Below are positions 2,739 through 63,717 of a DNA stretch of 64,000 bases, piece after piece. Positions within the stretch are counted from its first letter, which is position 1. Each line of letters starts with the position of its first letter. Source of the DNA: a virus; IMG/VR virus record IMGVR_UViG_3300025011_000038, positions 5,949-69,948 of that record. One strand, 5' to 3'. Under the pieces are notes generated by a model. It was not told the DNA's origin. It worked only from the letters and a program-made list of their open reading frames with translations, and did no database searches. The translations under genes and the position numbers were made by a program.

Positions 2739-3617
2739 ATGGAGGTGTTTCAAATGGATAAAAATAAGACCGTAAAAGAACTGTTATTGTCTGAAAACTA
2801 CATTCAATTAAATAAACTACTTATACATGCCATTGGTCTGCATGAATCAATACTTTACTGTGAACTATGTTCAAGGAAGAAGTATTTTGAAGATAAGGAT
2901 TTATTGTCGGAAGACGGATATTTTTTTAATACCGTTAATGATTTATATGCCGGGACAGGTATTACCGAAAAACAACAGAGGGCAGCAATTAAGAATTTGA
3001 CAAAATTAAAACTACTAAATGTTGTAGTAAAGGGTTTACCAGCTAAAAGATATTTCAAAATTTATGACCATGACGAACTGATAATTGCCCTAATAAATAA
3101 GGGAAAAGAGGTTTATAATGAGATAAAAGAGTCCTCAGCCCTTAAATATCAACAGTTACGCCAAAATGGCAGAAGTACATCGGACAAAATAGCAGAACTA
3201 CCTCCGCTATATGGGCAGAGTAATAAGAACAATACCAATAAGACTAATTCAGAAGAAAAATCTAATAATGTATATAATGTTGGTTTTGCTAAAAAACACA
3301 AAACCAAAGCATATTTTTTATTTAATGAATTAATCAATAAACCTATTAGTAAGGATACAGATACATTTGAAGAACAGTGTGTTAAATACTTCTTTTACCA
3401 ATACCGCGACATGATGGGAGAAGATCACCCTTCCATGAAAGATGATCAAATACAAAACGCACTTGATATTATGAGGATTAATTTCAGTAGCGGAAAAGTA
3501 GTCATGGAGATAATAAAAGACTATTTCAGTACGGAAATGGATTGCGACTATAACCTTAATCATTTTGTTAGCGGAGAAATAATTGAGAATAGACTATATA
3601 ACACGGGAAATCATTAA
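2739..3617 (+). CDS. Replication initiator-like protein (N-terminal winged HTH)
   Basis: NKLLIHAIGLHESILYCEL...DGYFFNT...TGITEKQQRAAIKNL...KGLPAKRYFKI pattern of phage/plasmid initiators, followed by an N/K/T-rich linker. Confidence 0.75.
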   Translation: MEVFQMDKNKTVKELLLSENYIQLNKLLIHAIGLHESILYCELCSRKKYFEDKDLLSEDGYFFNTVNDLYAGTGITEKQQRAAIKNLTKLKLLNVVVKGLPAKRYFKIYDHDELIIALINKGKEVYNEIKESSALKYQQLRQNGRSTSDKIAELPPLYGQSNKNNTNKTNSEEKSNNVYNVGFAKKHKTKAYFLFNELINKPISKDTDTFEEQCVKYFFYQYRDMMGEDHPSMKDDQIQNALDIMRINFSSGKVVMEIIKDYFSTEMDCDYNLNHFVSGEIIENRLYNTGNH

Positions 3618-3840
3618 CTGTATAAAAAAATAACCCTTCACGGGTTAAAAATACATTCGCTGCCCTGTTCGTTTTTTAGATCGCACCATTGATCGCACAA
3701 CCGTCTTTAAAAGAACAATATCAGTCCGCAACGTCAATAAAATCAAGGTAATGGACAAGCAATCAAATTTATATATAAGACGGACGTCACGACGGACGGA
3801 TTATAGCGATGAAATTTTCAACAACTAATCGACCGACCAC

Positions 3841-3867
3841 CTAACTAACTAACTAACTAACTAACTA
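3841..3867 (+). repeat. (CTAA)6 tandem repeat plus CTA
   Basis: ctaactaactaactaactaactaacta directly abuts the stop codon of 3865..4146. Confidence 0.95.
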
Positions 3868-4146
3868 TAAGTCTAACCCGAAAAAACGTGCAATCTTGGA
3901 AATAGCCGACCAAACAACTCCGATAACCATAGCAATAGCGGTAAATATTGTAATAATTTTAACCATACCGGCCACTTGACCATAGCCCAGTGCGGAAGTA
4001 ATGTATTGCATAATCCAGCTAAAAGTACATAAAACCATTAACTGCACTATCGGCATACCTATTCCCTTTAAGGTTTCTGCCGCCACTCCTGCATGACATA
4101 GAGAGGGGAATAAGAGTAACCCAATTATTGCCGCTAAATATTTCAT
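3865..4146 (-). CDS. Small membrane protein, SpoIIIAC/SpoIIIAD-like
   Basis: Signal-like N-terminus and two hydrophobic helices separated by ALGYGQVA, ending ISKIARFF, similar to SpoIIIAC architecture. Confidence 0.5.
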   Translation of the reverse strand: MKYLAAIIGLLLFPSLCHAGVAAETLKGIGMPIVQLMVLCTFSWIMQYITSALGYGQVAGMVKIITIFTAIAMVIGVVWSAISKIARFFGLDL

Positions 4147-4814
4147 CCTAACACCTCCCGGCGAATATTGCCCACAAGATAACTTTCGAACTCTAACCCG
4201 TTTTTATTTTCCGTCCTAACTAACTCGTTAATCTTTTTAAGTTTGCGCTCGTTGTCGGTGATTAACAGAGTTTTTGGAAATCTCTTGGTCTGCTTCACCC
4301 ACCACTGATCCGGCAGTTTGTCGAATAGCTTATTGTATTTTTTTACCTTATCAAACTCGTTGGCCGGATGGTGAATATCCATTTCGATAAACAGGAAACG
4401 AAATTGGCCTGTGATAGTGTTTTTGATAGCAATAAAGCAATCTGTAAGTAGTATTTTCATGTCGTAATTATAATTAACGGAGTGAATTTCCTCCCATGAT
4501 TTTAAGTTTCGTTCTATCCAAATTACTGCCCAATTCAATAATACAGTGTGTTGCATTTGCTCTAGTCGCTCCCGGTAATAGGCGTATGGTTGCTCTAGGT
4601 CGTACCGCCAGCGTTGTAGGCGTTTTTGGTCAGTTAACCGTTTGAGGCGTTGTTGGCATTTGCGCTTGCCGGATGCCGTGAGAGGGAATAGTAGTACCTG
4701 CACCTGTTCGGCATTGAGGCATCTGTGGGTGTGTATGCGCTCTAGTATTCTTTCATCGCGGCAATAACCTAACCGGCGGTTCGACATTTGACCAACTAGT
4801 GAAAGCATCGACAT
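4143..4814 (-). CDS. Replication-relaxation (Replic_Relax-like) protein
   Basis: N-terminal wHTH (RDERILERI...LNAEQVQVLLF...QQRLKRL), QHTVLLN motif, C-terminal D...FIEMD...KVKKY nuclease-like motif; coupled to FtsK gene. True start may be near 4794. Confidence 0.8.
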   Translation of the reverse strand: MSMLSLVGQMSNRRLGYCRDERILERIHTHRCLNAEQVQVLLFPLTASGKRKCQQRLKRLTDQKRLQRWRYDLEQPYAYYRERLEQMQHTVLLNWAVIWIERNLKSWEEIHSVNYNYDMKILLTDCFIAIKNTITGQFRFLFIEMDIHHPANEFDKVKKYNKLFDKLPDQWWVKQTKRFPKTLLITDNERKLKKINELVRTENKNGLEFESYLVGNIRREVLG

Positions 4815-5883
4815 TAACCCCTTTCAATAACTTTTTGGCCTGATTTACTGGAAGGTGCATCGTTTGGACTTCCCGGGTATCCATGCCGAATCTGTAAATT
4901 GCCCGACCTTTTACTCCCGGGAGATATGCGGCAAGGGAACAAGTTTCACCTAAAACCATACGGCTATTAAGTTCATCGGCAACCTGGAAACATAGTCTGC
5001 TTTGAAACATTGCCCTGGTATCTCCCGGGAGAACCTTTGTTGATGGTCTTTGTGTCGCCGCAACCACTGAAATACCAACCGCCCGGGCAAGTCTGGTTAT
5101 CCTGTCGATAAGTTTAATCGTTTTAGTGCAGGATATTTCCGCTAATTCATCTATTACAACAACGATAAAAGGTAACGGTTCCTTCGCCCTCTTATTGTAG
5201 TCCTGAATTTTAACCACTTTTGCCCTCTCTAGCGTCTTAATACGCTGTTCCATGCCCTTCTCAATGGCTTGCATCAGCAATAGTGCTTCTTCCTCCGTCC
5301 TTGCTAATGCCGCATAATCTTTCAAATAGGCAAATTCTAACCTTTTTAGGTCTATAATGCCGATTCGTGCTACTGGTAATAGGGAAGTAATAAGAACGTG
5401 CAGGAAGTTAGATTTTCCATACCCAGGAACACCTGCAATAAGTAGATGCGGAGATTCTTCAAGCGGTAGCACCTCCAGTCCCTGCTTACTAATTCCGACA
5501 GGTATTGGCAAGTCTATGTTACCGTCATAATTCCAGTTATAAGGTAGCTTATTTGGTATCTCGTTTGTATTGATGTTAATGTGTAGAAATTTGCCGTGTT
5601 TCTCCATTTCTACATTTAGCCCGGTAGCATCTTCGAAGTATTCCTGCTGATTTTTTAGAGTGTTGAATGACGTACCCGGGCGAAGTGTGAATATCATGTG
5701 CCATCCTGTTTCGGTGCGCTTGATACCTTTGCGGATCGGTAGTGGTCGGGGTTTGTCGAGGGGATAGAGAGTTTCTAGGGTATCTAGGATGGCGGCAGGT
5801 ATTTCGTATCCTCTGCGGTGTCTATAGGCATCTTTTAGGGCATTTATCGCCTCACCTAGCATGTTGATTTTTTGTTGCTTCAT
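4753..5883 (-). CDS. FtsK/SpoIIIE-family DNA translocase / coupling ATPase
   Basis: PHLLIAGVPGYGKS (Walker A), IDLK, VVVIDELAE (Walker B), RLARAVGI, ATQRP. Confidence 0.95.
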   Translation of the reverse strand: MKQQKINMLGEAINALKDAYRHRRGYEIPAAILDTLETLYPLDKPRPLPIRKGIKRTETGWHMIFTLRPGTSFNTLKNQQEYFEDATGLNVEMEKHGKFLHININTNEIPNKLPYNWNYDGNIDLPIPVGISKQGLEVLPLEESPHLLIAGVPGYGKSNFLHVLITSLLPVARIGIIDLKRLEFAYLKDYAALARTEEEALLLMQAIEKGMEQRIKTLERAKVVKIQDYNKRAKEPLPFIVVVIDELAEISCTKTIKLIDRITRLARAVGISVVAATQRPSTKVLPGDTRAMFQSRLCFQVADELNSRMVLGETCSLAAYLPGVKGRAIYRFGMDTREVQTMHLPVNQAKKLLKGVNVDAFTSWSNVEPPVRLLPR

Positions 5884-5915
5884 GCTGTACCTCCTGTTCG
5901 TTGTGTTGTTCGTTA

Positions 5916-5945
5916 AGTTTATGCGGAGGCGGTTTGTCTATATTC
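5916..5945 (-). promoter_or_regulatory. Putative sporulation sigma (sigE/sigG-like) promoter of the FtsK operon
   Basis: Minus strand GAATA-N17-CATAAACT upstream of AGGAGG RBS; no sigA -10 in this interval. Confidence 0.5.
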
Positions 5946-5955
5946 GTTTTTGGGC

Positions 5956-5982
5956 AAAAAAATAAACCGCCCGGAGGCGGCT
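5956..5982 (-). terminator. Intrinsic terminator ending the early operon before the FtsK cassette
   Basis: AGCCGCC-TCCG-GGCGGTT followed by TATTTTTTT on minus strand. Confidence 0.85.
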
Positions 5983-17871: not shown

Positions 17872-20595
17872 ATGGCAAAACTAACTGCAAAAGAAAAAGA
17901 AGCGTTACGATTTATTAATGAATTAGAACGGCGGCAGAAGGAAGAACATATTCGCTTTATTAGACCTTACGACAAGCAGGAAAAGTTTCTATTATCCAAT
18001 AAAAGGAATAGCTGGATACTTGGTGGGAATCGCACAGGAAAAACGGAATCTGGCGCAATTAGGGCGGTATTCCTTGCTTTAGGTGAGAGAATACGCCCTT
18101 ATCTTATAGATTGGCCGGATGATTTAAGGGAGAAATATGAACCTCTAATAACCCGTTTTGGCGGTAAACCTACTCGCGGTTGGATATGTTCCGTATCCTT
18201 TGAGGTACAAAGGGACGTTACTCAGAAGAAAATATTAGGTGACGTTGAAACCGGAATACCTGGATTGTTACCGTTAAGAGAGATTAAGAAAATAACCTAC
18301 CGCAGTACAGGTATTATAGATACCATACGACTTGTCGGTGGTGGTATTATTGGATTTAAGTCCTATGACCAAGGCAGAGAGAAGTTTCAGGGTTCATCTC
18401 AACATTGGTGTATTGCAGAAGATCAACGTGTATTTATGGCTGACGGAACATATAAACCCATACAAGATGTATGTCCCGGAGATATGGTTGTAACTAAAAA
18501 TGGTTGCGGTAAAATGGTAACCAGAAAAGTAGTTGCTAAGCATGACATGGGAGAAAAACCTGTATTTGATGTTGTTACTGGTAAATCTCCTTGGATACAA
18601 CTTACAGAAGATCACGAAGTATATGTTTCTTCTAAGAAAAAGAAAAAAGTTGTTGATGCTGACAGAATATACTTGTCTGATATGAATTTTCAGCCTAGTA
18701 CAACCGAGAATATGCCGGAAGGCTTTTATCCTTGGTTGGGACTTGTGCTTAGCGAAGGTACCACATCTGAAAAGAAAATAACTATTGGCAGTGAGGAAAT
18801 AGTTGCTGCCGCCAAAGAGTATTTACCTAGCGGTGTATATTTGCGGAAAACTGAGTTTAAAGCCTGCAATCATGTTCCAGATTGGCATATCAATAATTGG
18901 CCTGAGTTCTGGAAGGTAGTACCTGCCGGACTTGCCTATGAGAAATATGTACCAGATTGGGTTTTCCGTTCAGACAAAGAGCATATTGCTCTTTTTTTGC
19001 GTTATCTATTTGCCGGTGATGGTTGGGCAAGCGGTCATACAATTGGCTATGCTTCTACTTCTCGCAGACTGGCAGAAGATGTATGCTTATTATTAAGGCG
19101 CTTAGGTGTACGCTCAAGTTTTACTAAAAAGAAGAGTCAAAAGGTTGGGGTTTGGCGCGACCAATGGTGGGTTATGGTTTGCTCTGCCGACCATGTAGTT
19201 AGGTTTTCCGACAGTATTGGAATAGAGGGTAAGCAAGAAGCAGTTAATGCTGTTGTTTGCGAAGCTAAAAGACGTATAGAGAGTAAAATAAATAATACTG
19301 GTTTCTTAATTCCAAGATGTAAAAACGAAGAAGATAGTTTTAAATGGAAAAAACAAAATAGCAGAGCAAAAGAAACATACGCACGAATTAAAAAACTTAT
19401 TCCCTTGGGAAATAAGAGAACCTATGACCTATCTATAGAAAAGGATCATAGGTTTTTTGTTGGTACTTGCATGGTTTCAAATTGCTGGATGGATGAAGAA
19501 GGACCCAAAGATATCTACACAGAAATAATGATGCGTCTTATGGATACCGAGGGTGACTTATTTGGAACAATGACACCGCTTCAAGGTATGACGTGGGTGT
19601 ATAATGATATTTACCTTAACGACTCAAAACCCATTGAGAAGCGTGACGATGAAATATTCCTGATAATGGTTGAATGGAACGATAACCCTTACTTATCAGC
19701 AAGTGAAAAGAAACGTCTTGAAGCGTCTATGGATGAAGCGGAGTTAGAAGCGCGGAAATATGGGCGTTTTATTATGCCCGGCAAATGTTCCTTTAATATC
19801 GGCAGAATAGCGGAGATGCAGAAGAAATGCTATCCCGGCGAGCGAGGCAACCTTATATGGACAAGTCCTGCAAAGGTACAAGTCTATTGGCAACCAGAAG
19901 AAAAGGGCGAATATGAGGTATGGTTCCATCCTGAGAAGGGCGCAGAGTATTTAGTACCTGCTGACGTTGCAGAAGGTTTAGAGCATGGCGACTTTGATGC
20001 TGTGGGAGTTATTAACCGGCACAGGTTAAGGTTAGATGCTGTATATCATGGACACGTTGAACCGGACGTACTTGCCGATTATATGCGCCGATTAGGGTTT
20101 TACTACGGCATACCGATGTTAATACCTGAAGGCAATAACCACGGATTAACTACGATAAGTCACTTGAAAAAGGATTATTATGATATATATAGAACTCAGG
20201 TTTACGATAAGCGCAGCGACCAAACAAGACAAAAGTTAGGTTGGTATACAACTCCTAAGACTCGTCCGTTAATCGTTGATGCTATTAAAAAGGTTGTGCG
20301 TGAAGGAGTATTCGAGTGCTATTGGAAACGCTTTGTTGATGAAGCAATGAATTTTGTCCGACACCCAAACGGAAAAGAGGCGGCAAGGGGTGGACAGCAT
20401 GACGATGTTATTCTAATGTGCGCTATCGGGGTACATGTTCATATGACTACTGCCTTTAAGAATAACAATAGTATTCCCTTCCTCCCCGGTCAAGATAAGG
20501 GAAGAAGGTTAAACGCTCAGTCAATGGAACAATGGGCAGAGGACGAGGACGATGATGAATATGAAGAAGGATTACCGGGATTTTACGGAATGTAG
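17872..20595 (+). CDS. terL: Terminase large subunit, intein-containing
   Basis: GGNRTGKT Walker A, KSYDQGREKFQG, WMDEE Walker B, TMTP coupling motif, DVAEG and HDD nuclease motifs. Confidence 0.95.
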   Translation: MAKLTAKEKEALRFINELERRQKEEHIRFIRPYDKQEKFLLSNKRNSWILGGNRTGKTESGAIRAVFLALGERIRPYLIDWPDDLREKYEPLITRFGGKPTRGWICSVSFEVQRDVTQKKILGDVETGIPGLLPLREIKKITYRSTGIIDTIRLVGGGIIGFKSYDQGREKFQGSSQHWCIAEDQRVFMADGTYKPIQDVCPGDMVVTKNGCGKMVTRKVVAKHDMGEKPVFDVVTGKSPWIQLTEDHEVYVSSKKKKKVVDADRIYLSDMNFQPSTTENMPEGFYPWLGLVLSEGTTSEKKITIGSEEIVAAAKEYLPSGVYLRKTEFKACNHVPDWHINNWPEFWKVVPAGLAYEKYVPDWVFRSDKEHIALFLRYLFAGDGWASGHTIGYASTSRRLAEDVCLLLRRLGVRSSFTKKKSQKVGVWRDQWWVMVCSADHVVRFSDSIGIEGKQEAVNAVVCEAKRRIESKINNTGFLIPRCKNEEDSFKWKKQNSRAKETYARIKKLIPLGNKRTYDLSIEKDHRFFVGTCMVSNCWMDEEGPKDIYTEIMMRLMDTEGDLFGTMTPLQGMTWVYNDIYLNDSKPIEKRDDEIFLIMVEWNDNPYLSASEKKRLEASMDEAELEARKYGRFIMPGKCSFNIGRIAEMQKKCYPGERGNLIWTSPAKVQVYWQPEEKGEYEVWFHPEKGAEYLVPADVAEGLEHGDFDAVGVINRHRLRLDAVYHGHVEPDVLADYMRRLGFYYGIPMLIPEGNNHGLTTISHLKKDYYDIYRTQVYDKRSDQTRQKLGWYTTPKTRPLIVDAIKKVVREGVFECYWKRFVDEAMNFVRHPNGKEAARGGQHDDVILMCAIGVHVHMTTAFKNNNSIPFLPGQDKGRRLNAQSMEQWAEDEDDDEYEEGLPGFYGM
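18409..19482 (+). mobile_element. Intein with LAGLIDADG homing endonuclease (358 aa)
   Basis: Starts CIAEDQRV, block B LTEDH, LGLVLSEG and LRYLFAGDG motifs, block F TYDLSIE, ends VSN followed by Cys+1. Confidence 0.92.
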
Positions 20596-43104: not shown

Positions 43105-43794
43105 ATGAATATCATACAAAAACCAAGTAAAAATTTCAGCAGTAGACAGGGCAGAAAAATACTCGCCATCGTTGACCATATAACGGCAGGTTCTTTCAAC
43201 GGTGCGGTATCATGGCTATCTAACCAGACATCTAAAGCAAGCGCACATTACGTTATTAGTCGAGCTGGCGAGATTGTGCAGTTAGTCGCTGATGAAAACT
43301 CAGCATGGCACGCAGGCAGTATAAATAAACCTAATTGGCCCTTATATGACGGTGTAAATCCTAACCGCTATACTATTGGCATTGAACATGAGGGATATAA
43401 AGATAATGGCGGTGACGGTAATCTAACAGAAGATCAATATGATGCAACACTATGGTTACATCGTAAATTAATAGCTAAACACGATATTAAAATTGACCGT
43501 GACCATATCATCGGACATTACCGCATCGACAGCGTTAACCGTCCCAATTGTCCAGGTCCGGCGTTTCCTTGGGATAGGTTGTTTGCTGATTTACAAGGAC
43601 AACCTGTTAGTCAAGTTCCCGGACCCTTCCCTGACGTTCCCGGTGACAGATGGAGTGCCGGACATATCCAATGGTGTAAAGATAACGGTTGGATGAAGGG
43701 TTTTGACGATGGCACTTTTAGGCCAGAACAACCTATGACACGTGAACAAATGGCGGTTATTCTTGCTAGATTTAGAGATAAGGGGGTTATATGA
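43105..43794 (+). CDS. Endolysin: N-acetylmuramoyl-L-alanine amidase plus SLH domain
   Basis: IVDHIT, SAHY, AWHAG, IGIEHE, IIGH, CPG; C-terminal FPDV...GFDDGTFRPEQPMTREQMA. Confidence 0.95.
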   Translation: MNIIQKPSKNFSSRQGRKILAIVDHITAGSFNGAVSWLSNQTSKASAHYVISRAGEIVQLVADENSAWHAGSINKPNWPLYDGVNPNRYTIGIEHEGYKDNGGDGNLTEDQYDATLWLHRKLIAKHDIKIDRDHIIGHYRIDSVNRPNCPGPAFPWDRLFADLQGQPVSQVPGPFPDVPGDRWSAGHIQWCKDNGWMKGFDDGTFRPEQPMTREQMAVILARFRDKGVI

Positions 43795-55519: not shown

Positions 55520-55840
55520 TCAATCCTCCATTTTTATAATCTCCGCAACAGTCGCCAGAAACTGACTTGTCATAGGTTTGGTTATGATGTTATTAGGAAA
55601 TATATCGCAATACCTGACGGTCCCGTTTTCCTGCGTTTTGTGAATTGTGTGACGGATTGACCTTTCAACACGTTTTCCGGTTGTGCTGTGCTGCTCTGCC
55701 ACCTTTTCGTACAACTCACACCAACGTACGGAGTTCGGAATTTTGGTTAACTCCAAAATAGCTGTTCTTGCGTACTTGAATCCGTCCATTTGTGGGGGTA
55801 CTCCTATGTCAAGTAGGAGTTTTGTTGTTCTGTTTTTCAT
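55520..55840 (-). CDS. Stand-alone Spo0A C-terminal DNA-binding domain protein
   Basis: LLDIGVPPQMDGFKY.RTAI...LYEKVAEQHSTTGKRVERSIRHTI...KPMTSQFLATVAE. Confidence 0.9.
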   Translation of the reverse strand: MKNRTTKLLLDIGVPPQMDGFKYARTAILELTKIPNSVRWCELYEKVAEQHSTTGKRVERSIRHTIHKTQENGTVRYCDIFPNNIITKPMTSQFLATVAEIIKMED

Positions 55841-58551: not shown

Positions 58552-60312
58552 TTACTGACTGAATAATTTCTCTGCATCAGCGGCAGTCGGTTCATCCCAA
58601 CCGTATCTTTTGGGCCCCGTGTCGCTCGGCATACTAAACCTTCTGCATGAACTATCAAAATTTAGCTGTATTTCAACGTCCTGCTGACCACTAAAACGGT
58701 TCTTGAAAATCTCTAGTATGGTATCGCAGTTTTCCTCTGACTTCTCTTTTGGGGTAAGTCTATGAACCGCTAATACATTGTCTGCCCTATTGGTTATGTC
58801 TCCACTACCTGCAACGTCCATCTTGGTTAATCTGCCATGCGTTTTTCTTGGGTGTGCTACTAGGTGAACATGAACATCGTACTTCTGTGCAAATTCAGCT
58901 ACTCTATTTACAAATTCACTCTGTTTACGGTAGAAGTCTTTTTCGTTTCCGGCAAAAACGGTAGTCATAAGATTATCAATCATAAACACCTTACAACCGT
59001 ATCTTTGCGCCGCGTATCCAAATACTTCTAAAAGTGAATCATCGGAAACAGCACCGTAACTATCACACAAGAAAAATTTATCCATGTACCAATTGCGTAT
59101 TTTGTCTAATGCTTCTTTGGTCGGGTGCGCTACATTTGATTTTCTAATATCATCGAATCTGTATTCTAAGTTATCTGGTCCGGCAGCTTGTAAGTCAGTC
59201 CAGTATCTAAATACTGGCGCAGGCAATTCTCCAGAATAAGCACATACGGAAAATCCTTGGTCAACTGAGTCAAGCATAACCTGTCCTAGTAGTGTGCTTT
59301 TTCCTGACGAGTTAACGCCTGTCCAAATAGTAAACTGCCCCGACATGAAACCACCCATTACCGTATCAACTCCTCGGATACCGCTTCTAATTCTTAATGT
59401 GCCGTCATAGTCAAATGCTTTTACTTCTCCAAGTCTAGTCAATCCGCTAATTGGCACCTCCACAGCGTTTTTAACGGCATCCCTAACCGCCTGCTTACCG
59501 TCATAAACCAAAACTTCGTTGGCATCTTTTCTTTCTGTTTTCACAATCCAACACCTGGCAGCACCTAGTCGGTTGATTAGTTTTCTTTGTAGTCCCTGCC
59601 CTGGTTCGTCATTATCAACCCAAATTATTATTTTTCTAAAACTTTGTAGCCAGTCCCAACACAGGTCAACACAGGTCAAGTCCTCTGCCCCTGACGGAAC
59701 GCTTACGGCATTAGGTATTCCACATTCATCTAGGGCAAGCAGATCCATTTCGCCTTCACAGATTAAGAGAGGTTTTCCCGGCACACACAAGTCTATTCCC
59801 CAAAATATCGGTTTGCCGCCAGGTTCCCGCCAACCCTTTTTCTCTCCTTTTTTAGGTTTATGCGGCGGCCTAAACTTCATCAGCACCAATTTACCATTTT
59901 CGTAATACGGCATTGCTATATTTCCGTCAACTTCACATACTCCGCGCCGTTCCCATATTGCCTTTGAAAATCCGCGTTTCTTTAGGTATTCCTCGACCTT
60001 AGATGTTGCCGGTATTGTTTTTGACGCGGGAGGTACATAATTAACCTTTGGCCGCTTAATCTCAAAGTTTTTTGCTTTCTGCGTAACCTCACCTAATTCC
60101 CTAAGTAGTTGATGAAATGAACCAGTTGCACCGCATGAACCACGTTTACAGTTATATGTTCCGCTATTCTTATTAACGGCAAAGGTATATTTGTCTTGAC
60201 TATTACCGCCTTGACAGAAAGGGCAGTAGACAGGGACTATTTCCTCACCCTTAATTCTATAATCCCTAAAATACTTATCCGCTATATCTATTGGCGTTAT
60301 GTCGTAGTTCAA
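58552..60312 (-). CDS. Bifunctional primase-helicase (T7 gp4/Twinkle-like)
   Basis: CPFC Zn finger, TOPRIM (CEGEMD, SVPSGA, DNDEPG, KDANE), TGVNSSGKS, IDNL, VAHPRK, GSGDI. Confidence 0.93.
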   Translation of the reverse strand: MNYDITPIDIADKYFRDYRIKGEEIVPVYCPFCQGGNSQDKYTFAVNKNSGTYNCKRGSCGATGSFHQLLRELGEVTQKAKNFEIKRPKVNYVPPASKTIPATSKVEEYLKKRGFSKAIWERRGVCEVDGNIAMPYYENGKLVLMKFRPPHKPKKGEKKGWREPGGKPIFWGIDLCVPGKPLLICEGEMDLLALDECGIPNAVSVPSGAEDLTCVDLCWDWLQSFRKIIIWVDNDEPGQGLQRKLINRLGAARCWIVKTERKDANEVLVYDGKQAVRDAVKNAVEVPISGLTRLGEVKAFDYDGTLRIRSGIRGVDTVMGGFMSGQFTIWTGVNSSGKSTLLGQVMLDSVDQGFSVCAYSGELPAPVFRYWTDLQAAGPDNLEYRFDDIRKSNVAHPTKEALDKIRNWYMDKFFLCDSYGAVSDDSLLEVFGYAAQRYGCKVFMIDNLMTTVFAGNEKDFYRKQSEFVNRVAEFAQKYDVHVHLVAHPRKTHGRLTKMDVAGSGDITNRADNVLAVHRLTPKEKSEENCDTILEIFKNRFSGQQDVEIQLNFDSSCRRFSMPSDTGPKRYGWDEPTAADAEKLFSQ

Positions 60313-61118
60313 CGTATCACCGTCTTTGTTGGTACTTCCTTTGGTTTAGGAGTAGGTTTATTTTCCGTCTTTAGATTTCTTCCCCATTCAACATGTTTTT
60401 TACAGGAAGTATTTATTTGACTTCTAGGATTGCAGTTAGCTTTTAGTGGTTTGTCTATTTTATAGGTAGACCAATCCTTTATAGACTCGACCAAATCTAA
60501 TTGAGGATACCGTTCTTTTAGTTTTTCGTACATTTCAAGGTCTTTTGCCCTGTCGAATGGATAGTTTTTGACTAATTGAAGTGCTTTAAAAAAGGCATCT
60601 TCCTCAGAAGTTAGTATAATTGTATTTTCTTTCTCTATATCTAACTCTTGATCTATATCTGTTCCGTTACACTGCGTTACGGTAACGTTACATGTAACGT
60701 TACCATCAGGTAATTGCCTTTGCTTTTTGCGGTAATCGGCAACTCTCTTTCTATTCTGCTCTCTTATTTTGTCTAATCCTTCTATATTTTGATGCTTGTT
60801 CCAGTTAGAAATAAATACACCCTGTGAGCGCAGTTGAATCATTCCCATTTTGTCGAATGTTTCCAAAGCAAACCTAACGGTATTTATTGGCCTTCTAAAT
60901 TTATGAGCAAGCATTTCATCGGTATAAGGAATACTTTCAGTTAAGAAAATATATCCGTTCTGGTTGCATTTGCCGGCCAACGTCAATAATTTTATCCAAA
61001 TAATCAATACTGCATCGGCATCTGGCAGACTTTCTATGAAGTCTATTTTTTCATCCTCAAACATGGTAGTTGTTATTTTAATCCATTTAACTTCTGCCAT
61101 ATTCAATAACCCAAACAA
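60309..61118 (-). CDS. Phage replisome organizer / replication initiator
   Basis: VKWIKITTTMFEDEKI...IWIKLLTLAG...PYTDEMLA...NWNKHQN. Confidence 0.9.
   Translation of the reverse strand: MFGLLNMAEVKWIKITTTMFEDEKIDFIESLPDADAVLIIWIKLLTLAGKCNQNGYIFLTESIPYTDEMLAHKFRRPINTVRFALETFDKMGMIQLRSQGVFISNWNKHQNIEGLDKIREQNRKRVADYRKKQRQLPDGNVTCNVTVTQCNGTDIDQELDIEKENTIILTSEEDAFFKALQLVKNYPFDRAKDLEMYEKLKERYPQLDLVESIKDWSTYKIDKPLKANCNPRSQINTSCKKHVEWGRNLKTENKPTPKPKEVPTKTVIR
60666..60704. repeat. GTTAC/GTAAC repeat cluster with a 24-bp perfect palindrome (putative origin)
   Basis: GGTAACGTTACATGTAACGTTACC at 60681-60704 preceded by two CGTTAC copies. Confidence 0.75.
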
Positions 61119-62091: not shown

Positions 62092-63717
62092 TTATTCCGT
62101 ATATATCGGCAATTCGCTATCGCAATTACCGTTTTCATCAATTGATATTCTCTCTAAACGACATAAACTAATTTCATAGTTTAGATGATTGCAATTACTG
62201 TTGCTGCAAGCAACAAACGTTTCTTTTAGTTGTTTCCGCAACCGCTCAACCTCTGCCTGCAAATCCTTAATAGTAGCCTTAAGTGAGTTCTGAGCTTTTA
62301 TATCTTCTTCGATGGATATGTTGTTTGCTTCCATAAGAGCGGCACCAGCGGCCTTTAATCCTTCAACTATATATTCTGCCTTGATAGCCCGGTTAATTGC
62401 CTCCGGCCATCCTTCGCGGGCAGCGGCTATGAAATTAGCAGTCCCTAAATTGTAGCAATCGCAAACCGGCATATCGTTAATTTCCGTAAAAACGGTTGCA
62501 CCGTCACCATCTACATACCAACTACCGCTTATTACATTCTTACAAACCTCTAAATCCTTCTGTAAATCTCTCACTTAACCACCGCCCCAAAGTGTTTTTG
62601 AAGGCTTTTCAGGATTTCGCTACCTAGACTATCTAAATAGTTTTTAATCTCCTGTACGCCCTCTAAATCGTTGTTTTCGATGCCATAAGATAGGCAACCT
62701 TTTATCGCACCTTCAAGGGATGAATAGTAACCAACTTGATCCCAGAAAACCTTCCCCGGTACCTTAGCTTTTACACCGGCAATGCGTTTTTCCTCAAGGA
62801 TATAATTGTGCGGGTCCGTTGAAATTCTGTAACCGGAATTACCTATTTCTACCTGCATATCATTACCTCCCAAGCACTTTCTTAATATGTTCCTCTACTT
62901 GCTTAGATAGTTTTTCTTGCTCGTCAACCAATAGAGCAAACGCTCTAAATATGCTATCGGGACTACAGAATATATAACCTTCCTTACGCATCCACCGATT
63001 AAATCTATAAGTATTGTCGATAAAGTCACTTGCCATTTTGTCTGTTATGTCACCTTTAAACATTTCTTGTTCTGCTTTATTCCATCTGGTCAGTAATTCC
63101 TTAATAGAATCTAATTCTTTTTGCCTTTTTAATTGTTGCTGATCTAAATTAAATCCGCAATGTTCGCAATTTATGGAGTTTGCATCATGGGCAAACATAT
63201 AACCTTCAAGTGCAACAGCACCCTTACCGCACTTCGGACACTCAACAGGTATTTCCCATTGACCACAGTCACCGGCATCCCAAGCACGCTTAGATTCACC
63301 GATAACTTTTAGCTCCATATCAAGTAGGTTTAGTTTATTATCCCTGACATGATTACCGGCAATGTCACAAACAAAGCCAATTGCATTGCCGCCTTCTATT
63401 ATCTGTTTACAAGGCACTATTCAACCCCCTCTTAAACTACTTGACTACTCATAATACCTAAACGATATTTAAACCGCTGTACGGGCTATCTGGTGATGTT
63501 TTAAGGCTACCTCAACCCTGCCCCAAAGTATATGTTCTCCCCGAACACTCCCATGTACGTCAAGTCGTGTGCCATCGGGATAGCGGTACAAGTCCTCGAA
63601 AACCAGTCTGAACGCTCTCTCGATAGGTGAGTAGTCTTCTACAACCTTAAGCATGGCATCGTCACCGCCCAAAAGTTGCAATGAGCCGTTATTAATCATT
63701 AGTTGTACTGCTGACAT
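62092..63717 (-). CDS. Hypothetical proteins (62092..62574 Ead/Ea22-like, 62571..62873 DUF5405-like, 62863..63417 Zn-ribbon, 63469..63717)
   Basis: ANFIAAAREGWP motif; YRISTDPHNYIL..GYYSSL motif; CxxC pairs. Confidence 0.6.

Follow-up and report, generated by a model that had tools for sequence, protein, structure and literature searches.

The 64,000-nucleotide stretch analyzed here (hereafter the window; bases 5949-69948 of IMG/VR virus record IMGVR_UViG_3300025011_000038, a genome of 69,948 bp rated 100% complete) carries on its minus strand a self-contained three-gene transcription unit encoding an FtsK/SpoIIIE-type ATPase, a Replic_Relax protein, and a small membrane protein. The cassette follows a terminator and a promoter-like motif that recurs upstream of related cassettes and has the boxes and spacing described for the mother-cell sporulation factor sigmaE. 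The small protein belongs to a family with a profile-level likeness to SpoIIIAC, and the close relatives of the cassette are found in phages and prophages of endospore formers. These features may reflect a role tied to host sporulation; the possibility explored below is that the cassette delivers the phage genome into, or with, the developing spore.

Cassette architecture and upstream motif

The features of the cassette and its borders are as follows, with the evidence for each in brackets.

4753..5883, minus strand: FtsK/SpoIIIE-type ATPase, 376 amino acids (open reading frame (ORF) list, Pfam, PHROGs, PDB profile search)
4143..4814, minus strand: Replic_Relax protein, 223 amino acids (Pfam PF13814, alignment)
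3865..4146, minus strand: small membrane protein, 93 amino acids (hydropathy, model, profile comparisons)
5955..5982, minus strand: intrinsic terminator ending the upstream early small-gene operon (terminator scan)
5916..5945, minus strand: cassette promoter-like motif (sequence, motif scan, conservation in relatives)
5890..5895, minus strand: ribosome-binding site AGGAGG, 6 nt ahead of the ATPase ATG (sequence)
3631..3647, minus strand: terminator-like hairpin and T-run, end of the cassette transcript (terminator scan)
3841..3867, no strand: perfect tetranucleotide repeat CTAA, 6.8 copies (Tandem Repeats Finder)

This architecture is certain. By their longest ORFs, the three genes overlap by 62 nt and 4 nt, and the Replic_Relax start may alternatively lie at Met3 or Met10. 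The upstream terminator has a stem of AGCCGCC/GGCGGTT at 5982-5965 (seven pairs, five of them G-C), a TCCG loop, and a T-run; at the other end, the hairpin at 3631..3647 faces a convergent gene of 292 amino acids. The initial annotation had described three overlapping genes cut off from an early operon by a strong terminator, and both descriptions stand: Pfam confirms the identities of the ATPase and the Replic_Relax protein, with a small membrane protein as the third product, and the terminator scan recovers the stem and T-run.

The motif, GAATATAGACAAACCGCCTCCGCATAAACT at 5945-5916, consists of GAATATA in the -35 position (5945-5939), a 15-nt spacer that includes AGACAAA, and CATAAACT in the -10 position (5923-5916). 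A consensus scan listed no sigma-70-like site between the terminator and the ATPase start codon; the nearest one listed lies at 6018-5989, upstream of the terminator. By itself, ATA-N17-CATANNNT is a weak pattern, with 10 matches in the window where 4.8 would be expected; the extended form, GAATATA-N15-CATAAACT, occurs a single time in the 69.9-kb phage genome.

Conservation of the motif was followed through 12 IMG/VR loci and eight genome loci that carry related cassettes, in which it takes the form ATA(A/T)(1-2 nt)G(A/G)AC(A/G)A-N8-11-(C/G)ATA. Of the related loci, 17 have 400 nt or more of DNA before the cassette, and in 13 of these, as in the window, the motif stands 5' of the ATPase gene; L011 and L025, which have no upstream DNA, were left out of this count, and the motif is missing from L014, where the match is truncated. 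After removal of duplicates, the motif-bearing loci represent 10 distinct lineages, reaching down to 49% ATPase identity, and the motif stands in intergenic DNA that is otherwise unalignable between lineages. It is also kept where the DNA behind it has been rearranged. In the two closest relatives, an ORF of 81 amino acids, rich in cysteine (L006, 5753-5998), and about 1.4 kb lacking any long ORF on the plus strand (L005, 4550-6000) are inserted between the motif and the ATPase gene. The gap from ATA to CATA is 17 nt in every lineage, while the inner GGACAA is displaced by one base in the subgroup of the window, as would be expected if constraint acts on the two outer boxes.

This geometry can be compared with published sigmaE promoters (papers are cited here by PMC number). 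In Clostridioides difficile, sigmaE promoters have ATA at -35 and a -10 of the form CATAT.AT that is common with sigmaK, as in CATATTAT and CATATAAT, and the classical spacing is 16-18 bp (PMC3789822). For Bacillus subtilis sigmaE, an 8-nt -35 block and a 10-nt -10 block are placed 12 +/- 1 bp apart (PMC517825). The cassette motif, read as ATA, 17 nt, and CATAAACT, has the ATA at -35, the CATA...T at -10, and a distance within 16-18 bp.

Sporulation promoters were also read in five host genomes that carry related cassettes. Three of the five have TAATAAT-N13-CATATATA as the spoIVA promoter and the remaining two have close variants of it, and the spoIIID promoter is TCAATTT-N14-CATATATA in two of the five. 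For spoIIIAA, the promoter is TCATAAT-N13-CATATCTA in the genome of L021 (labelled Pelosinus) and TCATAAT-N14-AATATAGA in genome G002. The boxes of the cassette motif are the same as those of these host spoIVA, spoIIID, and spoIIIAA promoters. Across the five genomes, the motif pattern itself has four matches, two of which are the cassettes and two of which lie in or beside coding sequence without an evident target; the motif is therefore not a general host element. Readings of the motif as a sigmaK or sigmaG promoter were rejected by eye, since an AC is not found at the proper distance and the -10 lacks the TA of sigmaG promoters. The inner GGACAA resembles the presumed SpoIIID box. SpoIIID sites that overlap sigmaE promoters accompany repression; among them is the site over the -35 element of spoIIIAA, in the sigmaE-dependent spoIIIA operon (PMC517825).

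Judged on its sequence and conservation, the motif is somewhat more probably than otherwise a conserved mother-cell-type promoter, not of the sigmaA kind, that is dedicated to this cassette. A sigmaE-type architecture in place of a sigmaA promoter had been proposed in the initial annotation, and the proposal is strengthened by the lack of a listed sigma-70-like site and by the retention of the motif in the related loci.

The three encoded proteins

The ATPase matches Pfam FtsK_SpoIIIE (PF01580) with 70.9 bits against a cut-off of 24, and phrog_1358 with an E-value of 1.7e-64. Its Walker A (GVPGYGKS, residues 151-158) and Walker B (VVVIDE, residues 241-246) motifs are invariant in the alignment of relatives. 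When a profile of seven relatives was searched against the PDB, the best solved relatives were chains 6o1w-6o1z, described as a 'DNA translocase coupling protein' (E 3e-31, residues 36-346), which we presume to be TcpA of pCW3; the FtsK of Pseudomonas/E. coli (2iuu) came second and aligned over the motor only (E 4e-24, residues 123-311). The alignment with the coupling protein extends N-terminal of the motor, as is expected of TcpA-type proteins. Chromosomal FtsK/SpoIIIE translocases have a membrane domain, a long linker, and a C-terminal, sequence-reading gamma domain. That layout is not seen here, although no search was aimed at the gamma domain itself: the protein has 376 amino acids in total, the Pfam motor match ends at residue 281, and there is no membrane segment. 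The match to the coupling protein, together with the lack of a membrane segment, suggests a soluble, TcpA-like, coupling-type motor without the membrane domain of FtsK.

TcpA-type coupling proteins are known from integrative and conjugative elements (ICEs), integrative mobilizable elements (IMEs), and plasmids of Firmicutes, where the tcpA gene lies directly upstream of the relaxase gene (PMC5357655), the same order as that of the ATPase and relaxase-like genes here. Unlike those systems, the window ATPase has no N-terminal membrane anchor, and the phage has no cognate type IV secretion system (T4SS): no T4SS (mating-pair) family was found among the 87+6 window ORFs scanned or in the remaining 5.9 kb, which agrees with the earlier statement that mating-pair genes are absent from the window. 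In the same survey, the PF13814/MobC relaxases of IMEs had VirD4 as their partner, and no canonical relaxase was found together with TcpA (PMC5357655).

The second protein matches Replic_Relax (PF13814) with 34.1 bits (cut-off 25.3), in two stretches, and the homologues in phages BtCS33, GBSV1, and 268TH007 likewise exceed the Pfam cut-off. It has an N-terminal helical part, resembling a helix-turn-helix (HTH), and a C-terminal alpha/beta part. Residues D125, E144, D146, and K156 are invariant in seven Replic_Relax sequences, and the order of secondary-structure elements is compatible with a PD-(D/E)XK core. PF13814 has been assigned to this nuclease fold, usually fused to an HTH (PMC3424549), and CONJscan treats it as the MOBC relaxase superfamily (PMC5357655). 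'Relaxase' is accordingly used here as a family label, for a putative activity; no oriT was recognized. Its PHROGs matches carry the labels 'replication initiation protein' (E 4.6e-6) and 'replication initiation by nicking' (E 1.3e-5), and a PDB sequence search with the Replic_Relax profile returned chance-level rows only. An AlphaFold2 (AF2) model built from the seven sequences was not usable (mean predicted local distance difference test, pLDDT, 48), and a predicted complex of the ATPase with the Replic_Relax protein scored 0.25, against a mark of 0.32.

The small protein begins with a signal-peptide-like segment (residues 1-19, ending ..CHA|G), followed by a two-helix hydrophobic hairpin; its AF2 model is a helical hairpin with a pLDDT of 80. 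Neither the protein nor its relatives match any family above threshold in Pfam, PHROGs, or NCBIfam, a Foldseek search of the model against the PDB gave nothing below E 3.5, and an ESM Atlas look-up returned unnamed viral clusters only. A word-indexed search found 25 relatives, one of which, in Desulfofarcimen acetoxidans, carries the UniRef name 'Conjugal transfer protein TrbC', and an exhaustive profile search extended the family to 114 cluster representatives. When 111 of these were scanned against Pfam, SpoIIIAC (PF06686) was the sole family to recur, with three sub-threshold matches (E 2e-4 to 4e-4; best 21-22 bits against a threshold of 24), alongside one match to Spore_III_AE. T4SS pilins (VirB2/TrbC; PF18895, PF04956) were not matched by any of 14 members at E<=1, nor by any of the 111 at E<=1e-3.

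Deeper profile comparisons point in the same direction. A SpoIIIAC reference of 28 sequences, drawn from 39 spoIIIA loci of the host phylum, aligned with the small-protein family (132 sequences) in hhalign at 60.4% (E 8.5e-5), over 59 collinear columns that span both helices and the A-G-K loop between them. Control comparisons with the family gave 0.6% for reversed SpoIIIAC, 3.6% for SpoIIIAD, and 0.4% (range 0.3-0.8%) for a nine-sequence T4SS_pilin profile from the same phylum, whereas five random nine-sequence subsamples of SpoIIIAC gave 39-60%. When a hidden Markov model (HMM) of the family was run over 413 ORFs of spoIIIA loci, SpoIIIAC made up 21 of the 25 top matches (best E 3.6e-7); conversely, the SpoIIIAC HMM matches 29 of the 132 family members at E<=0.01, and none in either of two reversed controls. 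Like SpoIIIAC, a part of the SpoIIIA-SpoIIQ channel between mother cell and forespore, the family has a two-helix membrane hairpin, about 65-75 residues long, whose helices are joined by a short A-G-K loop. The protein of the window differs from SpoIIIAC in its added signal peptide, and in being phage-encoded beside DNA-handling genes rather than within a spoIIIA operon. By these comparisons, the family is probably a remote relative of SpoIIIAC, and its sequences are clearly nearer to SpoIIIAC than to T4SS pilins.

Distribution and possible role

Every related locus with sufficient downstream sequence keeps the trio in synteny, some of them with a 150-amino-acid insert or a second small membrane gene. 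The eight genome loci are labelled Peptococcaceae, Pelosinus, Desulfoscipio, Pelotomaculum, or Bacillota metagenome-assembled genomes (MAGs), and spoIVA, spoIIIAC/AD, and spoIIID are all present in each of the five cassette genomes in which they were sought. All close relatives lie in phages or prophages of endospore formers, a restriction that the initial annotation had proposed to test; non-sporulating Firmicutes were sampled through the phage collection only. A further copy, with the full cassette, the motif, and a tyrosine-recombinase-like ORF (L018), lies on a 21.7-kb contig labelled as an Archaeoglobus MAG. The archaeal label most likely reflects a binning error involving a Firmicute prophage.

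Beyond these relatives, the ATPase matches 381 records of the phage collection, including 264 from Bacillus phages, eight from Geobacillus, and three from Clostridium, as well as 52 from Mycobacterium, six each from Listeria and Staphylococcus, five from Ralstonia, and others. Among the matches listed, records outside the Bacillus type mostly match the ATPase motor only, and mycobacteriophage Constella and the SP-15-like LIS04 have no annotated Replic_Relax neighbour. No match was found when the region was compared with the phage collection by blastn, or when the Replic_Relax and small proteins were compared with it by tblastn.

The closest counterparts among described phages are those of Bacillus and Geobacillus (Novomoskovsk/Bolokhovo, BtCS33, GBSV1, 268TH007, Pavlov), which are annotated with FtsK/SpoIIIE and Replic_Relax genes, in some cases with 'TrbC/VirB2' and a ribbon-helix-helix protein. 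As in the window, the ATPase gene precedes Replic_Relax, the genes overlap or abut, and the hosts form spores (PMC9658697); in Novomoskovsk and GBSV1, a small ORF stands third, and in Pavlov and GBSV1, terminators are annotated at the cassette ends. Their ATPases, however, are only 22-30% identical to that of the window, and their small neighbouring ORFs fall outside the SpoIIIAC-like family. GBSV1 is the sole one of these phages to have the motif (ATAAAAGGACAATCAGGGCCACATAGGC, preceded by TGGACAAG). Directly upstream of their FtsK and Replic_Relax operons, BtCS33 has dense, short palindromic repeats resembling TACCAnGGTA (L001, 2120-2300), and 268TH007 has an array of repeats rich in ACGG(T/C)A (L003, 2470-2640); these iteron-like arrays are candidates for centromere-, clt-, or oriT-like sites. 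In genome papers, the role of the FtsK and Replic_Relax pair has been conjectured to be DNA injection (PMC3853050), segregation or replication (PMC11526630, PMC9658697), or cross-talk with sporulation (PMC3359378, PMC4113786). The literature searched yielded no functional study of such a cassette.

Two other systems offer partial parallels. In Streptomyces, the TraB/clt/Spd system moves DNA across septa without a T4SS, by means of an FtsK-like motor and small membrane proteins. TraB has its own DNA-recognition domain and is not known to have a relaxase-like partner or a link to a sporulation sigma factor, and its phylum differs from that of the host of the window phage; by analogy, the system may nevertheless be the nearest mechanistic precedent for an intracellular form of conjugation. 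In spore entrapment of the phi29 type, a phage genome enters the forespore and survives within the spore, using host Spo0J with parS-like sites and host SpoIIIE, and is not known to involve a translocase of the phage.

A mechanism that would join these elements is sporulation-timed delivery of the phage genome, which we put forward tentatively, as the favoured reading of those considered but one that may well prove wrong. On sporulation of an infected or carrier cell, the cassette would be read from its own sigmaE-like, mother-cell promoter, apart from the early, replication, and late programmes of the phage. The Replic_Relax protein, with its winged-helix part and PD-(D/E)XK nuclease fold of the MOBC superfamily, would bind the phage DNA, perhaps nick it, and pass it to a soluble, hexameric ATPase of the TcpA/FtsK type. 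The SpoIIIAC-like hairpin would position this motor at the interface of mother cell and forespore, and the phage genome would be brought into the developing spore or be kept with it. SigmaE dependence, the nature of the DNA substrate, and the direction of transport are inferred here, as is any docking on the SpoIIIA-SpoIIQ channel. The stand-alone Spo0A C-terminal domain encoded by the phage (described below) is counted in favour of this mechanism. A more specific version, which we regard as unlikely, is that the relaxase-like protein and the coupling-type ATPase use the phage paralogue of SpoIIIAC to plug into or imitate SpoIIIA-SpoIIQ, thereby delivering the genome after septation.

Several observations weigh against delivery into the spore. 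The motif is absent upstream of the related cassettes in L021-L024, and from BtCS33, 268TH007, and Novomoskovsk, three of the four Bacillus/Geobacillus phages examined for it; where it is present, its 15-nt spacer is 1-2 nt longer than the 13-14 nt of the host sigmaE-type promoters. Since sigmaE is active only after septum closure, the DNA would face two membranes to cross, the phage having no recognizable channel genes, and no hydrophobic segment precedes residue 159 of the ATPase (19-residue windows, mean Kyte-Doolittle at least 1.6). The likeness to SpoIIIAC is also unevenly spread, reaching 78% in the 57 short forms without a signal peptide but 21% in the 75 longer ones like that of the window. 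The protein of the window gives E 0.44, which is not significant, against the 28-sequence SpoIIIAC HMM, has no Pfam match at E<=0.1, and thus falls outside PF06686 as Pfam defines it; a first hhalign comparison of small alignments (21 sequences against five of SpoIIIAC) gave 0.2%, a value superseded by the deeper alignments. The initial annotation had called this protein SpoIIIAC-like and had looked to HMM and structure searches of 3865..4146; the likeness holds for the family profile and its controls, and is not significant for the protein taken alone. Host range is of limited help: the Replic_Relax profile occurs in nine of 401 host-phylum genomes, all nine of which have spoIVA, but so do 323 of the 401, and the comparison is therefore without power and uninformative on a link to sporulation. 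Finally, the FtsK/SpoIIIE ATPase of phage Fah belongs to the delayed class of genes in vegetative infection, and the early and late genes of Fah depend on the sigmaA holoenzyme (review PMC4113786), which weighs against sporulation-only expression in the Fah lineage.

The last of these points counts in favour of an alternative, a generic DNA-handling module that works in growing cells, either mobilizing the phage genome through a resident conjugative system or segregating an episomal prophage, with the motif serving as an operator or as some other kind of promoter. Many phages of Bacillus and Geobacillus, of varied morphotypes, have FtsK and Replic_Relax pairs, often in the lysogeny region, and of the three such phages without the motif, BtCS33 and 268TH007 have the iteron-like arrays instead. 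The placement of PF13814 in the MOBC superfamily, the conjugative coupling protein as the best solved relative of the ATPase, and a CI/Cro-like HTH pair in a phage without an integrase, which is consistent with an episomal state, would all be accommodated. Such a module leaves unexplained why the motif has sigmaE-type boxes and spacing and is unique in the genome, and why the third gene encodes a SpoIIIAC-like protein rather than a T4SS pilin; T4SS_pilin genes occur in only four of 151 host-phylum genomes, so that a resident conjugation system to ride on would seldom be at hand, and the partners surveyed for PF13814/MobC relaxases and for TcpA (above) are not those combined here. We consider this alternative rather doubtful, if worth serious attention. 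Initiation of replication in an auxiliary role, the nicking being done by Replic_Relax as initiator and the ATPase serving as its motor, would agree with the PHROGs labels and with RefSeq, which calls the GBSV1 and Pavlov homologues 'replication initiation protein'. The phage already has a full replication module, however, and neither a membrane protein nor a sporulation-type promoter would be expected for such a function, which makes it the least probable of the explanations considered.

The sigmaE-type promoter and the SpoIIIAC-like protein could also belong to interference with sporulation, in which a SpoIIIAC mimic and a DNA motor, made in the mother cell, disturb or re-purpose SpoIIIA-SpoIIQ or chromosome translocation, and so delay, abort, or alter spores to the advantage of the phage; the phage Spo0A domain likewise suggests manipulation of sporulation decisions. 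Interference does not account for the constant linkage and translational overlap of a nuclease-fold protein, a coupling-type ATPase, and a small protein, and no toxin-like or inhibitor-like feature was seen in the cassette, so that this explanation appears improbable to us. More improbable still is superinfection exclusion or defence, with the membrane protein and the ATPase/nuclease pair acting on incoming foreign DNA. The cassette does resemble a moron, being self-contained and having a promoter and terminators of its own; the PHROGs category of the ATPase is 'moron, auxiliary metabolic gene and host takeover', and the nuclease fold of Replic_Relax (PMC3424549) would suit such a function. 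Yet exclusion explains neither the type of promoter nor the likeness to SpoIIIAC, and the cassette occurs in Bacillus phages of lytic type as well.

Delivery by way of SpoIIIA-SpoIIQ, or in imitation of it, would, if true, constitute a dedicated viral route into the spore, and would hint that the sporulation channel can pass DNA. Only for very few phages is it understood how the genome enters spores and persists in them for years, and in those cases host proteins are relied on. Phages of the Bacillus type have long been seen to carry FtsK/SpoIIIE-like genes, with only speculation as to their role; a conserved promoter of mother-cell type and a SpoIIIAC-like protein make that speculation directly testable. 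A real link to SpoIIIA-SpoIIQ would also bear on what that channel can transport.

The phage genome and its host

Pfam and PHROGs scans of the 87+6 ORFs describe a tailed phage of about 70 kb. Its structural and lysis genes include small and large terminase subunits, a P22-like portal, an SU10-type adaptor, an LPD38 giant protein, and an Amidase_2+SLH endolysin, and a replication and nucleotide block lies on the opposite strand. The replication module comprises a replisome organiser, a DnaB/primase, and an initiator (60309-61118, 58552-60312, and 62571-62873, respectively). The large terminase gene (17872-20595, plus strand, 907 amino acids) is split by an intein with a LAGLIDADG homing endonuclease, the Hint, Intein_splicing, and LAGLIDADG_3 matches sitting between the two terminase halves.

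No integrase was found across the complete genome (the window and the other 5.9 kb), nor was a partition gene. Within those 5.9 kb outside the window lies a divergent pair of XRE-type HTH genes, of 80 and 131 amino acids (G000:C1:2854-3661, locus L062), resembling CI/Cro. A CI/Cro-like switch in a genome with neither integrase nor partition gene suggests an episomal or carrier lifestyle.

The host of the phage is uncultured, and is best explained as an anaerobic endospore former of the Peptococcaceae/Desulfotomaculia type. The endolysin (43105-43794, plus strand) has an SLH domain beside Amidase_2, an indication that the cell wall of the host carries an S-layer-anchoring polymer. A gene of 106 amino acids at 55520-55840 (minus strand) encodes the C-terminal DNA-binding domain of Spo0A alone (PF08769, E 8e-19), without the receiver domain; its product could bind 0A boxes without phosphorylation, steering either the entry of the host into sporulation or the phage's own switch.

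Two further observations concern the DNA downstream of the cassette. The convergent gene of 292 amino acids (2739-3617) is a lone plus-strand gene set apart from the main replication module at 58-63 kb, and in PHROGs it matches O-like and DnaD-like loaders of replication initiation (E 8e-10). The CTAA repeat starts right at the stop codon that ends the small gene, and the 200-nt spacer that follows this gene contains the short direct repeats GACGGACG and GATCGCAC, twice each; these repeats may serve the Replic_Relax protein as a cis site, or form a tract prone to slippage.

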